Assembly (NCBI GenBank): GCA_965237415.1
Contig: CBDEFM010000002.1
Span: 1,952,001-2,016,000, forward strand
Length of the DNA stretch: 64,000 bases
Direction: 5' to 3'
Origin: Alphaproteobacteria bacterium
Lineage (GTDB): Bacteria; Pseudomonadota; Alphaproteobacteria; UBA828
Part shown: positions 34,883 to 63,244 of the stretch, piece by piece
Numbering within the stretch: the stretch's first letter is position 1
How the letters are laid out: every line of letters begins with the position of its first letter
Made by a program: the position numbers and the translations under genes
Notes under the pieces: generated by a model
Database searches by the model: none
Told to the model about the DNA's origin: nothing
What the model saw: the letters and a program-made list of their open reading frames with translations, nothing else

Positions 34883-35151
34883 TAACCCGCATTTCTCACC
34901 ACGGTCACGGCCTGCGTCGCGCCCAGGCGTTCGGTCCGCTAGGAGCGGGCCGAAAAGCGTATCGGTGCATACGGTTGAGGCCCGCGACGAAGCGGGCGGG
35001 CGCCTGGGCGCGACCCGAAGGGCGGCGCTGTCCGGCCGACAGTGTGCGTCACGCCGCTTGCCCGATGCACCACATCGCGCTGTGCGCCGTTCCTACCCTG
35101 TCGACCGGACAGCGCCGCGCAGACCATGACCGTGGTGAGAAATGCGGGCTA
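34883..35151. mobile_element. MITE-like palindromic element with TA ends, inserted in the 5' end of tpiA
   Basis: Left TIR TAACCCGCATTTCTCACCACGGTCA, right TIR TGACCGTGGTGAGAAATGCGGGCTA; internal inverted repeats; related left arm at 62363. Confidence 0.88.
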
Positions 35152-39857: not shown

Positions 39858-39960
39858 GCGAACCGGAGGCTCTTCCCTCCCGATTCGCCGGACCATGGTG
39901 CGCTGCCCGGCGCAGGGTGTCGGTGTCAGCATCGCACCGTGCGCTGTGAGAAAGAAGACA

Positions 39961-40168
39961 CCCCCACCTCACCCCGGCCCTCTCCGCCCCCAGGGGCGGA
40001 GAGGGAGAACGGGCAGCGCCGTCTGCGTCTCCCCTCCGCCCCACCGGGCCGTCAGGCCCGGACGGCGCGACTGCGCCGCGCGCGAATGCGCGTAAGCCAA
40101 GCGAGCGGAGCGAGCGCCCGGCGACTGAGGGATACGAACAAGTTGGGAGGGGGACAGGGGGAGGTGGG
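39961..40168. repeat. Composite palindromic intergenic repeat
   Basis: Perfect 13-bp hairpin CCCTCTCCGCCCC-CA-GGGGCGGAGAGGG; outer ends CCCACCTC/GAGGTGGG; internal unit of about 100 bp shared with 61382-61480. Confidence 0.7.
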
Positions 40169-40175
40169 TGCGGGC

Positions 40176-40725
40176 GGTACAGACCGGATAGATAGGTAAC
40201 AGAATGGACCGGATAGATGGGTGACAGGTTATGGCAGGGCCAGGAGGTGGCCGATGCCGTGGAAGGAGACCTGTCGCATGGAGGAGAAGTTGGTTTTTGT
40301 CGCAGACTGTCTGCGTGGCGAGTTGCCGATGACAGCGCTTTGCGAGGACTACGGCATCAGCCGCAAGACGGGCTACAAATGGCTCGGTCGCTATCGCGAG
40401 CACGGCCCGGAGGGCCTGGTGGAGCGCTCTCGTGCGCCGCACCGTCATGGTCGGTCGATGGCGCCGGAGATGGCCGAAGCGATTGTTGCTCTGCGCAGGC
40501 AGCGTCCCCATTGGGGTCCGCGCAAGCTGCGCGCAGTGCTGATGGGAGAGCGCCCCGAGGCGGTGTGGCCTGCGGCCAGCACGATGGGCGATCTGCTGCG
40601 TGCGGAAGGGCTGGTGAGCGACGGCGAACACTGTTACCCATGTAACCGGTCCATAGCGTTACCGAACACTGTTACCCATGTATGCTTCCGGTTGCACAGG
40701 CGGTACCCATGCTTCCGGTTGCACA
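40176..40725 (+). mobile_element. Internally deleted IS481-family element (HTH part of transposase, both ends retained)
   Basis: ATG 40254 MPWKETCRMEEK..LCEDYGISRKTGYKWLGRY..HWGPRKL..WPAASTMGDLL; DDE core missing; left end GTACAGACCGGATAGATAGGTAACAG is roughly inverse to right end TACCCATGCTTCCGGTTGCACA. Confidence 0.88.
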
Positions 40726-40767
40726 GTCGCCTGCGAGGCACACTGCTATCGCGCACACGACCTCATA

Positions 40768-40862
40768 TGCCGCGCGCGAGACGTTTCGGGCTCACGCGAC
40801 TCGGGCGTGCGCGACATCCCACTTATCCCACTTAATCCCACTTAATCCCGGCTAAGAAATGT
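40768..40862 (+). repeat. Gene-less miniature of the DUF3486 unit: 33-bp hairpin motif plus TCCCACTTA(A) tandem array
   Basis: 40768-40800 matches the reverse complement of 62209-62241 at 29/33; 40817-40852 matches the reverse complement of 61512-61547 at 35/36. Confidence 0.85.
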
Positions 40863-40942
40863 TCATCTGTCTCGATACACCGGGCAGCCACTGCGAATGG
40901 CGGACGGCGGAGCCGGAGTGCGACAGCGGCGGGAAGAGCGGG

Positions 40943-41932
40943 TTAATGGTCCACGTAGTCCTCGATGTACTGGCGCACCACCTCGTCCAAAGGCGGGTTC
41001 TGGGGCAGGCCGAGGGCCGCGGCCCGTTCGGCCTTCGCGTAGGCTGGCCAGGAGCCGACGAGACGCTGCACCGCCCCATCGGGCGCATCGATGACCGCGC
41101 CGAGCTTGCGGCCGGCACCCACCCGCTCCAGCGCCGCCACCATCTCCCCCGCCGTCGCCGAGAAGGAGGGCAGGTTGATGGTGCGGTCGTCGCCGAGCGC
41201 CGTGCTCGGCGCCTCGTGAAGGGCGACCAGGCTGTCCACGATCGTGCGGTAGCCGCCGAGGACGATGCGCGTGTCCCGGCTGACCGGGAGCGCGTGGTCC
41301 ACACCGGCGAGCGGCTCGCGGAAGAGCCCGCTGGCGAAGCCGGAGGCCGCCTTGTTGGGCTTGCCCGGCCGCACGATGACGGTGGGTGGCCTGCCGCCGC
41401 GGCCATCCAGGTAGCCCTTACGGGTGTAGTCGGCCACGAGGTGCTCGTTGATCACCTTGGTCACGCCATAGGTGCCCTGCGGGGTGATCTTGGTCTCGTC
41501 GGAGATGGTCTCCGGCAGCGCACTGCCGCCATAGACCGCGATGCTGCTGGTGAAGACGAGCCGGGGGAGCCCCGGCGCGGCGCGGCAGGCGTCGAGCACA
41601 TTGAGGCCGCCGGTGAGGTTGACCGCCAACGCGAGGTCGAAGTCCTGCTCGGCGCCGGCGCTGACCACCGAGGCGAAGTGAAAGACCGAGAGCGAATCGC
41701 CCGCGATGAGCGCGCGCACCGTCTCCCCATCGGCGACATCGCCCGCGGCGAACGAGACCCGCTCGTCCTCGAGGCCCGCAGGCGGCTGGTCCGGCACGAC
41801 GGCATCGAAGAGGACCATCTCGTCGATCCGCTCCTGCTCGCCCGATGCGCCGGTCAGCGTATCCCTGTCGAGCAGCGCCCGCGCGAGTCTCTGCCCGAGA
41901 AAGCCCAGTCCTCCCGTAATCACCACCTTCAT
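40943..41932 (-). CDS. D-erythronate dehydrogenase-like extended SDR (DenD family)
   Basis: ITGGLGFLG, FHFASVVS, FTSSIAVYG, YGVTK, VRPGKPNKAASGFAS..REPL. Confidence 0.85.
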   Translation of the reverse strand: MKVVITGGLGFLGQRLARALLDRDTLTGASGEQERIDEMVLFDAVVPDQPPAGLEDERVSFAAGDVADGETVRALIAGDSLSVFHFASVVSAGAEQDFDLALAVNLTGGLNVLDACRAAPGLPRLVFTSSIAVYGGSALPETISDETKITPQGTYGVTKVINEHLVADYTRKGYLDGRGGRPPTVIVRPGKPNKAASGFASGLFREPLAGVDHALPVSRDTRIVLGGYRTIVDSLVALHEAPSTALGDDRTINLPSFSATAGEMVAALERVGAGRKLGAVIDAPDGAVQRLVGSWPAYAKAERAAALGLPQNPPLDEVVRQYIEDYVDH

Positions 41933-57072: not shown

Positions 57073-57503
57073 GGGTCACGATCTTTACCGACGGCGCGTG
57101 TCGCGGCAATCCGGGGCCGGGCGGCTGGGGCGCGGTGATGAGCTGCGACGGCCACTACCGCGAGTTGAGCGGCGCGCACCCGCAAACCACCAACAACCGC
57201 ATGGAGCTCACCGCCGCGATCCGGGCGCTGGAGGCGCTCAACCGCCCCTCCGAGGTCACGCTCTACACCGACAGCACCTACGTGAAGGACGGGATCACCC
57301 AGTGGCTGCCCAACTGGAAAGCCAGAGGCTGGCGCACCGCGGCCAAGGCGCCGGTCAAGAACCGCGACCTGTGGGAGGCCCTCGACGCGCTTGCCAACCG
57401 CCACGACGTGACCTGGCACTGGGTGCGGGGCCATGCCGGCAATCCCGCGAACGAGCGCGCCGACACACTCGCGCGGGCGGCGCTGAAGGCGGAGGCGACG
57501 TAG
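57069..57503 (+). CDS. rnhA: Ribonuclease HI
   Basis: [41 protein letters not shown]. Confidence 0.96.
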
Positions 57504-57656
57504 GCGGACGCGCTCGCTCTTGCTCTGCATGGCGCGATCCTGATGCAGAAGCCGCGCATCCTGCATCGCACCATGGTCCGGAGAATCGGGCGGGGGGAGA
57601 GGCCCAGGCCCTAATGAGAATTTCGGGCCTGAAACCTGCCGCCAGCCGCGGGACTG

Positions 57657-61208: not shown

Positions 61209-62159
61209 TCATACCCCATGGTGCCGTCCCGGCGCGAAGGGGCGGCGTGCGATGGGACGTGCCAAGCGATTTTCTGCGAGATTTGCCAGGATCGGGCCGC
61301 AGAAGGCGTGACGCGCCGGCGCCACCTGCGTCCCCTCTCCGCCGCGCGCGGCAACCGACGATGCGTCGACCATAAGGAGGGCCGGACCGCAGGTCCGGAG
61401 CGCGCGACCGCGCGCCGCGCCGAATGGCGCGTAGGCAAGCGAGCGGAGCGAGCGCCCGCCGTTGAGGGATTTGAAAGAAGACACGCCCGACACATTTTCT
61501 GGGCGGGATTCGCCGGGATTAAGTGGGATTAACTGGGATAAGTGGGAGTCCGCAGGATTCCACGGGTCGACCGGGGCCGATGCGACGGCGCGCGCAGGCC
61601 GACGGGGCCTCCCCTCGACGACCTCGCGGATGGCGGCGACGGCCTCGGGCGAGAGGCCCTTCCTGACCGGCGCCTGGCCCGCGCCGGGCGCGGCCCTGGC
61701 CGCCTTCGCCGCCGCCCGCTCCCGCTCGAGGCGGAGCTTGTCGGTGCCTTCGATGCGCCTGAGGACCAGCGCCAGGCGGGCGAGCTCTTCCGTCGACACG
61801 GGCTCCTCGCGACGGCTGAGATCGGCCAGGGCGGAGAGCGTCAGCGTCCGCAGGGTCTCGATCAGGATGAGCCCCGCGCTGCCCTCGGTGCGCTCGCCGA
61901 GCGCACGCACCCACGCCTCGTTGGCGCGGTCGGCCTCCTGCTGCTGGCGGATCAGGTCGCGCACGTTCTTGACGTAGCGGCCGACGGCCGAGCGCGAGCA
62001 CGCGCCGCCCTCCGCCCGGATGCGGGCCGTGATTTCGTCGATGGTGGCGCCGTCTGCGATGGCCGCATCGACGGCCTCACGCAGGGTGGGCGGCAGCCGC
62101 GCGATCAAGGAGCGCCCGAACGTCGCGGCTGTCGTAGTCTGTCGGGTTTCGTTTTGCAT
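61209..62159 (-). CDS. Mu gp27/DUF3486-like protein; ORF reads on through downstream repeats
   Basis: GRSLIARLPPTLREAVDAAI..TIDEI..SRSAVGRY and GLSPEAVAAIRE resemble Mu-like phage gp27; family resemblance ends near 61610. Confidence 0.75.
   Translation of the reverse strand: MQNETRQTTTAATFGRSLIARLPPTLREAVDAAIADGATIDEITARIRAEGGACSRSAVGRYVKNVRDLIRQQQEADRANEAWVRALGERTEGSAGLILIETLRTLTLSALADLSRREEPVSTEELARLALVLRRIEGTDKLRLERERAAAKAARAAPGAGQAPVRKGLSPEAVAAIREVVEGRPRRPARAVASAPVDPWNPADSHLSQLIPLNPGESRPENVSGVSSFKSLNGGRSLRSLAYAPFGAARGRALRTCGPALLMVDASSVAARGGEGTQVAPARHAFCGPILANLAENRLARPIARRPFAPGRHHGV
61382..61480 (+). repeat. Dispersed repeat of about 100 bp (second copy)
   Basis: Homologous to 40044-40142; exact 23-bp core CAAGCGAGCGGAGCGAGCGCCCG. 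Confidence 0.8.
61493..61547 (-). repeat. TCCCACTTAA-type 10-bp tandem array
   Basis: Minus strand TCCCACTTA TCCCAGTTAA TCCCACTTAA TCCCGGCGAA TCCCGCCCAG AAAATGT. Confidence 0.85.
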
Positions 62160-62362
62160 GAGGCGATGCTGGCGCGCCGAGCCCCCGCCCTCCACCGCAC
62201 CATGGTGCGTCGCGCGAGCCTGAAAGGTCTCGCGCGCGACAGATAGGGTTGTGAGTGTAGCCGACGGAGCGTCGCATGAATCGGCAATGGAAAGTCGGAT
62301 GAAACCCTGGAATATCGGCTGGAAATCCGGGCCGGGCTCGCGGTCGAATTGGCCTGGAAATT

Positions 62363-62462
62363 TAGGCCGCACTTCTCACCAAGGTCATGGCCTGCGTCGC
62401 GCGGGACGCGCGCGGAGCGCACGATGCGTCCAGGCGTTCGATCCGCCAGGAGCGGGCCGAGA
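62363..62462 (+). mobile_element. Partial (left arm) copy of the tpiA MITE family
   Basis: TAGGCCGCACTTCTCACCAAGGTCATGGCCTGCGTCGCGC...CCAGGCGTTCGATCCGCCAGGAGCGGGCCGA aligns with 34883-34953. Confidence 0.8.
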
Positions 62463-62604
62463 ACTTGAATCACGTCGTCTGTCATATGACCCTCACCCAC
62501 ACCAGCCCGCTCAAGAGCGATAACCGGCGTCCGGTCTCCAGGAAATTGGCGCGACCGTCGAACGCGAGCCGCGGGCGGTATTCAGCCAGCACCTCCAGCC
62601 GCAC

Positions 62605-63244
62605 CGCCTGAGCGGCGGATGCATGGCGTGCTCGCGCATCAGGCGCTTGATCTTCTTGTGGTTGACGATCCAGCCCCGATGCCTGCACGCCGCCTGCATG
62701 CGTCTCCAGCCGTAGGCTTCGAACTCGTCCTTGATCGCGTGCTTGGCCTCGACCAGGGCGGTGTCGTCGACCGATGCCCTTGGTTCGTCGTAGTAGGTGG
62801 AGCGTGCGATCCCCATCAGCCGGCATCCTTGGGCGATGGAGAGGCCTCTGGGCCGGTGATGACGGACATGGGCGCGCTTCTCGGCCGTGTCGTCCTTGCT
62901 GCAGCGCCCCCCTTAGGAACTCGAGCTCGAGGGCCTGCTTGCCCACCAGGCGTTCGAGGGCCGCGATCCGGGCCTCGTACTCCTGGATCGTGCTGGCCGC
63001 CTCGGCGTCCTCGTCGAAGGCGCCGGCCTCGTACTTCTCCACCCAGATCCGATGGGGTGCGGGAGAGCTCGTGGCGGCGTGCCAGGCTGTGGAGGGTCTC
63101 GCCGGCGAGATACTCCTGAACGACCTGGCGCTTGAAGGCGATGCTGTGGGTGCGGTGCTTTGCCATGGGCGTCGATCCCTCGAATGCCCGACGCACCGGT
63201 CAAATCATTTCAATCCGCCTGTCCGACCCAAGGGGCCCACTCCA
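62605..63244 (-). mobile_element. IS3-family remnant (frameshifted orfA, truncated orfB)
   Basis: Left end TGGAGTGGGCCCCTTGGGTCGGACAG; orfA from 63166 MAKHRTHSIAFKRQVV with frameshift near 63053; orfB MGIARSTYY..YGWRRM..VNHKKIKRLMRE ends before the DDE core. Confidence 0.88.

Follow-up and report, generated by a model that had tools for sequence, protein, structure and literature searches.

A Mu gp27-like gene beside lineage-specific 10-bp-phased repeats in a family of small, putatively mobile elements of Rhodospirillales-like bacteria

A lone gene for a Mu gp27-like protein, located between a GC-rich hairpin and a short array of 10-bp-phased repeats, raises the question of what kind of genetic unit could hold these three parts together. 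The gene resides in a 64,000-nucleotide stretch of DNA (assembly GCA_965237415.1, contig CBDEFM010000002.1, positions 1,952,001 to 2,016,000), referred to throughout as the window, from an alphaproteobacterial genome of 4.75 Mb (66.7% G+C, two contigs). A first-pass annotation had interpreted palindrome, open reading frame and array as one small element with a gene-less miniature elsewhere in the window, and all three parts were recovered where it had placed them. The features of the gene-bearing copy are as follows:

61480..61502 (minus strand), A/T-rich tail (CCAGAAAATGTGTCGGGCGTGTC) in which homology to paralogues ends (alignments end at 61480-61513)
61503..61560 (minus strand), 10-bp-phased array GGAATCCTGCGGACTCCCACTTATCCCAGTTAATCCCACTTAATCCCGGCGAATCCCGC of the TCCC type, from pattern matching (described on the first pass as 61547-61512)
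61548..62159 (minus strand), Mu gp27/small-terminase-like gene of subfamily A with a core of ~204 codons, from Pfam and PHROG profiles
62160..62209 (minus strand), left end and leader CACCATGGTGCGGTGGAGGG...CAGCATCGCCTC that ends at the ATG, inner part of an imperfect terminal inverted repeat, from homology to paralogues
62209..62241 (minus strand), GC-rich palindrome of 33 nt resembling repetitive extragenic palindromic (REP) sequences, abutting the left end, from folding and genome matches

The evidence presented below points to a family of small, non-autonomous elements with terminal inverted repeats (TIRs) that target TA dinucleotides and encode a protein that would be an exapted phage terminase small subunit binding the element's own array; we put the probability of this reading at about 0.55. 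By kind, such a unit is a non-autonomous TIR element with cargo, and it is the cargo and the lineage-specific phased array that are unusual. As judged from the genomes compared, the family is confined to a single genus of Rhodospirillales-like bacteria that have not been cultured, and the portions of the literature seen in our searches contained no description of such an element.

Structure and copies of the element

The assignment of the gene to the gp27 family (formerly DUF3486) was borne out by profile searches, in which PF11985 (Phage_Mu_Gp27) spans the whole reading frame (E 2.8e-23, profile positions 1-171 of 173, 83.6 bits vs. a cut-off of 28) and PHROG 426 (phrog_426, 'terminase small subunit') matches the protein at E 1.6e-26. 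The gp27-like proteins of the remaining lineages match Phage_Mu_Gp27 or small terminase profiles as well. In total, this genome yields 11 gp27-like matches, including four close paralogues of subfamily A with protein identities of 71-100%, while a second group of gp27-like proteins of ~300 amino acids is termed subfamily B. Pairwise dN/dS values within subfamily A have a median of 0.42 and range from 0.14 to 0.76 (26 intact genes from 28 loci, 325 pairs), and the gene is under purifying selection. With regard to the order of gene and array, the earlier description of a reading frame followed by the repeats had to be revised: the frame that starts with the ATG at 62159 has no stop codon before the array and stays open through it as far as 61209, as is also the case in related loci with a VDPW motif, where the tail measures at least 27 codons.

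At the DNA level, the subfamily-A copies are homologous from 62209, right after the hairpin, to 61480-61513. The left-end motif CCATGGTGCGGTG (window position 62205), which is followed by ~50 nt up to the ATG of the gene, has 90 matches in the genome at no more than one mismatch, 50 of them with the leader tail. This genome contains 63 true TCCC arrays, and for 59 of these a left end in the same orientation lies no more than 1.6 kb upstream, at a distance of 126-433 bp in 52 gene-less copies and of at least 650 bp in seven. The gene-less copies retain the ATG and the first ~15-20 codons and continue directly with the region that precedes the array, so that they are best described as internal-deletion derivatives. 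The first-pass notion of a full and a miniature form within a small element family was therefore sound, while that of a private pair was not, given 63 arrays and 44 hairpins genome-wide.

Beyond the array, an A/T-rich dozen bases is followed in 31 of the 63 copies by a ~55-nt segment ending in ...GACCGTGGCGAGAAATGCGGGC, with TA as the next dinucleotide in 18 of these 31. Left ends occur in a short form that starts TA|GCCCGGA|CCATGG and in a long form that starts with a fuller copy of the repeat; TA precedes the short form in seven of the left-end copies listed. A full unit of 0.7-1.3 kb with its one gene can accordingly be read as TA, left repeat and leader (…GCCCGGA-CCATGGTGCGGTGCAC…ATG), gp27-like gene, optional REP-like hairpins, array, A/T-rich spacer, ~55-nt right end finishing in a 25-bp inverted repeat (…GACCGTGGCGAGAAATGCGGGC), and TA. 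The gene-bearing copy of the window has no right-end TIR within 170 nt of its array. With regard to possible RNA structure in the leader, RNAalifold on 50 copies yielded only a 5-bp helix with G-C/G-U changes, and a proposed 9-bp stem (CATGGTGCG / CGCGCCATG) is invariant and hence unsupported; Rfam returned only tRNA for the window at gathering thresholds and nothing relevant for five paralogue loci at E <=0.1.

The arrays comprise 4-8 units in 10-bp phase, lie 25-80 bp inside the right end and are kept in the deletion derivatives. An array 17-mer occurs twice in the window compared to 0.02 occurrences expected. Of 18 other genomes of the genus, 12 have the exact TCCC pattern, compared to none of 12 outside it, a looser ATCCC-N5 pattern occurs 0 to 133 times per congener, and a reversed control pattern gave no match across all 31 genomes. 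Throughout the genus the layout is constant, with the core followed successively by ACTT…, GCTT, GGAAT/GGCGA and GC and then by an A/T-rich run, while the core itself varies by lineage, i.e., (A)TCCC, (G)GGCC, (G)TCTC or (G)TGCC. Since a 10-bp unit cannot encode a peptide repeat, the constraint would act on the DNA. A near-identical single site, ATCCCATGTTATCCCATTAAATCCC, is conserved in three genomes from other genera of the order (G019:C9:33970, G021:C17:275984 and G022:C8:264542); it could be a binding-site cluster, such as an origin or operator, separate from the mobile arrays.

The hairpin had been taken for an end of the element and is better described as an independent REP-like insertion that is neither end nor part of it. 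As single-stranded DNA, 62241-62209 folds with -15.1 kcal/mol (z -3.98; none of 200 shuffles folds as well), and the genome holds 44 matches at no more than five mismatches with covarying stems and a conserved loop, ACCTTTCAGGC. Its independence follows from its absence upstream of three of the four close paralogues (c3851, c1398 and c1740), by the in-frame insertion of a 36-nt hairpin in three subfamily-B genes and by one public contig (X3) that skips exactly 37 bp (62214-62250). Independent occurrence across the genome, which the first-pass annotation had named as evidence against a common element, holds for the hairpins and does not hold for left end and array, which co-occur in 59 of 63 cases. 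The RAYT/Y1 gene family PF01797 gave no match in this genome (the control was positive in 6 of 14 reference genomes).

Two further copies are present in the window, and a piece of another repeat family is located beside the gene-bearing one:

39880..40944 (plus strand), gene-less copy with left end (39893), IS481-like transposase fragment (~40281-40595), decayed hairpin (40768-40800), array (40817-40852) and right-end-like segment (40900-40942)
57500..57636 (minus strand), truncated copy of which a long-form left end alone is present, immediately after the stop codon of the oxidoreductase gene (motif match C2:2009576 minus, window position 57576)
62363..62463 (minus strand), internal piece of a ~265-bp TA-flanked family of miniature inverted-repeat transposable elements (MITEs) that shares a repeat with the element's right end

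The gene-less copy is what had been described as a 95-bp miniature. The similarities reported for it to the gene-bearing unit are accurate (hairpin 29/33, array 35/36, 16 bp between them), and the actual copy extends over ~39880-40944 and is interrupted by the insertion sequence (IS) fragment, which features HTH_32 and LZ_Tnp_IS481 domains. Its hairpin folds no better than shuffled sequence (z -0.14), and its right-end-like segment abuts the stop codon (40943) of a convergent epimerase gene. Two pairs of direct repeats (CACTGTTACCCATGTA twice and ACCCATGCTTCCGGTTGCACAG twice) at 40625-40745, right after the truncated IS481-like fragment, could be subterminal repeats of the IS481-like IS or another transposon end.

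The neighbours of the gp27-like gene in the window are an oxidoreductase gene and IS fragments, neither a large terminase nor a portal gene being adjacent. A ~100-bp dispersed repeat (TTTCAAATCCCTCAACGGCGGGCGC...; ~30 genome copies) directly follows the element at 61380-61479 and in G004 is found on both sides of a gp27 copy. Upstream, 62482-63196 contains a frameshifted remnant of an IS3-family transposase gene (weak HTH_Tnp_1 match).

Mobility and comparison with known elements

To compare occupied and empty sites, a 19-kb region of the same genome (L105) that contains three elements, E1, E2 and E3, was aligned with five congeners. The orthologous site of the gene-bearing E2 is empty in G001, G008 and G018, that of E3 in these three and in G009, and that of E1 in G008; occupancy by related copies varies at orthologous sites, and these are the empty alleles that the first-pass annotation had suggested looking for. 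Where the E2 site is empty, the stop codons of two convergent genes overlap (…TTAG… / …CTAA…). In the filled site of this genome each of these genes ends with TAG beside the element, one of the two stop codons being supplied by the element's right end. As read from these alignments, the elements insert between convergent genes at TA-bearing TTAG/CTAA stop codons. The E1 site of G001 is occupied by a MITE with perfect 25-bp repeats, GAGC-TA-[GCCCGC…GCGGGC]-TA-GGAC, as compared with GAGT-TA-GGAC in the empty G008; TA duplication is clean for this pair and consistent for E2. E1 and E2 are the exact points at which synteny with G004, the closest genome (95-97% DNA identity), is broken and inverted, and the element repeats probably serve as recombination substrates.

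A single site upstream of the oxidoreductase gene, beside the gene-bearing copy of the window, illustrates the diversity of the family. Of 19 genomes, 6 lack an element there and 13 are occupied by differing variants, i.e., a subfamily-A gene with a TCCC array (3, including this genome), a third gene lineage with a TCTC array (2), a gene-less GGCC array (5) and a minimal remnant of left and right end (3).

The last 25 nt of the right end are identical to the terminal inverted repeat of a separate MITE of 264-266 bp. This MITE is TA-flanked, has 25-bp inverted repeats (GCCCGCATTTCTC.CCA.GGTC) and is represented by at least 15 full copies in the genome, one of them in the window (34885-35149).

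The element encodes no recombinase, in agreement with the first-pass annotation, and a TA-specific DDE transposase supplied in trans would move it. The genome contains 11 DDE_3 (IS630-type) and 18 DDE_Tnp_1 (IS4/IS5-type) transposase matches. As helpers, the IS630 copies, the main ones of which end in TAGTCACCTGGCAC, and a 1204-bp IS5-like IS that ends in AGGGAAAGTCTGAAC were rejected on account of ends unlike those of the element. The same applies to Mu/Tn7-like transposons of 4.4-4.6 kb in sister genomes (L181-L187), which have different ends. These transposons encode a Mu-transposase C-terminal domain, are present in 30, 10 and 20 near-identical copies in G009, G008 and G032, and have TGTTGT... 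ends that hold repeated GATTTCCC-like sites.

Among known systems, TA-targeting MITEs (derived from IS630/Tc1-mariner, or the Correia/NEMIS elements of Neisseria) are likewise small and multi-copy, lack a transposase gene and occur near gene ends, and their TIRs and TA flanks have partial counterparts here. Unlike these, the element described here carries in its full form a gene of the DNA-binding type that does not encode a transposase, has an array at one end and an imperfect left repeat. GC-rich palindromes that are scattered through the genome and flank a family-associated gene are reminiscent of REP/REPIN-RAYT systems, and the hairpins do behave like REPs; here, however, no Y1/RAYT gene is found, the gene is multi-copy and terminase-like, and the hairpins are not the element's ends. 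Staphylococcal pathogenicity islands and phage-inducible chromosomal islands (SaPI/PICI) share with it a small-terminase (terS)-like gene outside a phage genome and possibly a recognition site of their own, but these satellites measure 5-15 kb and encode integrase, replication and regulation functions, whereas the present unit has 0.7-1.3 kb, one gene, putative TIR/TA ends, and tens of gene-less copies. Phased repeats of the protein-binding type just inside a transposon end are also known from Mu, Tn7 and Tc1/Sleeping-Beauty. There, the transposase itself binds and both ends have sites, whereas here the sites are at one end and only a terminase-like protein is encoded. The protein resembles Mu gp27 itself in size, in its full-length profile match and in having long helices after an N-terminal helix-turn-helix; in contrast to the Mu gene, the gene is lone, multi-copy and part of a repeat unit without adjacent large terminase or portal gene, and a lineage-specific phased array lies downstream.

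Array type and protein lineage

The gp27-like protein probably recognises the 10-base repeats of its own element. The first-pass suggestion to this effect is plausible insofar as the array core changes with the protein lineage. When array type was mapped onto a quick maximum-likelihood tree comprising 54 proteins, 5 changes were required (minimum 4), compared to a mean of 11.8 after shuffling, with none of 200 shuffles as low; on its own, this result is weak because related copies share array labels by descent. Stronger evidence is provided by the coexistence of array types, by differences in the putative recognition helix and by the distribution of gene-less arrays. Two or three array types coexist in G005, G006, G008, G011 and G017, each beside its own protein lineage. 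The sequences of this helix in proteins of the four types are SRSAVGRYxKN (TCCC), SRSAVVRYxKR (GGCC), SRAAVGRYATRN (TCTC) and SRSAIARYARR (TGCC). Of 21 genomes of the genus, 8 contain gene-less GGCC arrays and 4 contain gene-less TCTC arrays; neither type is present in this genome, whose gp27-like genes are all of the TCCC type. The units of an array change in concert, which argues for a lineage-specific reader, and the gp27-like protein would be the sole lineage-specific protein encoded.

An oligomer of the gp27-like protein might bind its own array sequence-specifically, probably along one face of the helix. The structure modelled with AlphaFold2 (mean pLDDT 78.5, alignment of 32 rows) features an N-terminal three-helix domain with pLDDT >90 followed by long helices, a fold that reads as helix-turn-helix plus long helical hairpin. 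Foldseek found no match in the PDB at E <=0.001, its top rows being helix-turn-helix domains of sigma region 4 at E ~1 and a small terminase appearing only at rank 49 (E 4.4), and a wide fold search with VIA-align gave generic helical hairpins only (Z <=8). A complex prediction for four copies of residues 14-190 scored 0.07 and speaks neither for nor against an oligomer. Contigs from RNA libraries touch the gene at depth 2-9 and, being assembled contigs, are not proof of transcription; contig joints 61552>62209 and 61539>62186 with sides shorter than 30 nt probably derive from gene-less copies elsewhere. Of the RNA runs in which small shares of the stretch are represented, two carry the label sponge metagenome.

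Every short derivative keeps the array, which gives it the appearance of a cis requirement, and it may be the site needed for propagation of the element. The position of the array, always 25-80 bp inside the right end, and its retention in deletion derivatives would equally suit a subterminal site of a trans-acting transposase, comparable to the inverted repeat/direct repeat ends of Tc1/Sleeping-Beauty or to the ends of Mu and Tn7, with the gp27-like gene as passive cargo; cargo-carrying non-autonomous elements are known. We regard this explanation as rather improbable, since the array is present at one end only, four array types beside four protein lineages, coexisting in single genomes, would need four matching transposases, and the gp27-like gene is under purifying selection and the sole gene kept in all lineages.

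Far less credible is the possibility that the arrays are sites for a host factor (DnaA-box-like, CtrA-like or bound by a nucleoid protein) that serve regulation or chromosome organisation. The TCCC unit TTATCCCAC, with its likeness to a DnaA box and its TTAA every 10 bp, both of which we take to be resemblances to such sites, as well as the single array-like site conserved in other genera could be cited in its favour. However, GGCC, TCTC and TGCC arrays have the same architecture without DnaA-box or TTAA motifs, copy numbers range from 0 to 133 among congeners, and arrays are present or absent at orthologous sites.

Links to phage genes and biological meaning

The leader of the gene-bearing element also heads four other loci in this genome:

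C2:24629, leader before a gene for a head-maturation protease (phrog_976) with cement and major-capsid genes
C2:1133179 to 1120807, leader before a duplicate of the protease gene, then ~12 kb of tail genes, ending in hairpins and a TCCC array
C2:1209572, leader before a DUF5675/holin-like gene pair
C2:1229542, leader before a truncated Mu-type portal gene, near a C-terminal fragment of the large terminase subunit (TerL)

The leader looks phage-derived, and the gp27-like gene was probably captured together with it. The last of these loci (L080, G000:C2:1227317-1230969) comprises the TerL fragment, a gene for an RTX-repeat protein, hairpins with the leader, and the truncated portal gene and is a degraded packaging module; this single Mu portal and TerL fragment lie ~785 kb from the window on the same contig. 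The two protease loci are part of an inverted multi-kb segmental duplication (L082/L083, G000:C2:17.7-26.0 kb and C2:1131.9-1140.0 kb) that contains host genes and the phage protease gene; capsid genes follow one copy and tail genes the other, and the duplication could reflect an assembly join or a rearrangement of recent date.

These loci bear on the idea that the gp27-like protein is still a small terminase and the array a packaging start (pac) site for Mu-like capsids or capsids resembling gene transfer agents (GTAs), of a resident or an infecting particle, with start sites distributed across the chromosome by the elements, the unit then being a minimal satellite or a transducing device. 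Phased repeats in or beside terS genes can serve as pac sites, the PHROG 426 match names a terminase small subunit, one leader is common to the head protease/capsid, tail, lysis and portal loci, and the tail operon ends in hairpin and array. Moreover, gp27-gp28 is the usual gene order in Mu-like phages, which distant homologues fit: those examined in two other genera and one prophage-type copy within the genus (L077, L078 and L167) are followed by TerL-like reading frames. None of these three prophage-type homologues, however, has an array. In addition, this genome yielded only a TerL C-terminal fragment and a truncated portal gene and no intact large terminase in searches with three Pfam families, including Terminase_6N and TerL_ATPase, the arrays of this genome show no obvious strand polarity, and packaging leaves unexplained why intragenomic deletion derivatives always keep the array. 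We consider packaging an appreciably less probable explanation than the proposed transposon-borne pair, and the principal competitor to it, ahead of passive cargo; the role that we favour for the protein, which would be a repurposed phage terminase small subunit, is that of a lineage-private cofactor or label for transposition.

The common leader, the tail cluster framed by left end and array, and the TerL and portal remnants would also be compatible with left end, gene and array being late-operon remains of repeatedly decayed Mu-like prophages. This appears very unlikely in view of precise boundaries common to the copies, empty orthologous sites, 52 short copies and TA flanks in place of the 5-bp duplications that Mu insertion is expected to leave. 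As had been noted on the first pass, the gene is a lone one; it is not the edge of a prophage, no phage gene standing beside the window copy, and the same holds for the family, with no phage neighbour and no conserved neighbour gene in 61 loci; the only clusters represented in a majority of these loci are the gp27-like gene and its own antisense frame, and the next-largest covers 12 of the 61.

Several observations weigh against a non-autonomous element with a protein that reads its own array. As regards mobility, the left end resembles the right repeat only partly (TAGCCCG.., CCAYGGT.GCGGT), i.e., the inverted repeat is imperfect, a right inverted repeat is recognisable for only 31 of 63 arrays and not in the window copy, TA duplication rests on few clean junctions with those of E3 not being clean, and this genome revealed no autonomous partner, in that the IS ends examined differ and no repeat pair frames a transposase gene. 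With regard to recognition, array and protein could covary simply through linkage, as two parts riding on the same element, arrays outnumber intact genes ~6 to 1, and in subfamily B the SRSAVGRY motif is lost or interrupted by a hairpin with TCCC arrays being kept. Finally, as the leader at the left end also precedes head, tail, lysis and portal genes, it might belong to phage late operons and not mark the end of a transposon, and the 12-kb tail operon is itself framed by left end and hairpin plus array.

Miniature transposons are usually thought to carry only their ends. The full-length form of the present family carries a single selected, phage-derived gene beside repeats that change in step with the protein. 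As a tentative and rather speculative extension, a TA-targeting miniature transposon may have captured a small-terminase gene together with its array and turned them into a self-spreading 'address label', a private pair, particular to each element lineage, that licenses mobilisation or seeds capsid packaging at dozens of positions in the chromosome. If the binding holds true, TCCC, GGCC, TCTC and TGCC arrays and their proteins would constitute natural orthogonal protein-DNA address pairs and exemplify the recruitment of a terminase small subunit by a transposon, and both the gain of specificity by non-autonomous elements and the spread of packaging sites through a chromosome would become directly testable. 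If packaging were true instead, the degraded head and tail genes with their common leader would represent a GTA-like transfer system with transposable start sites. The elements mark inversion breakpoints between sister genomes and provide neighbouring genes with stop codons, and they therefore shape genome structure in these bacteria.

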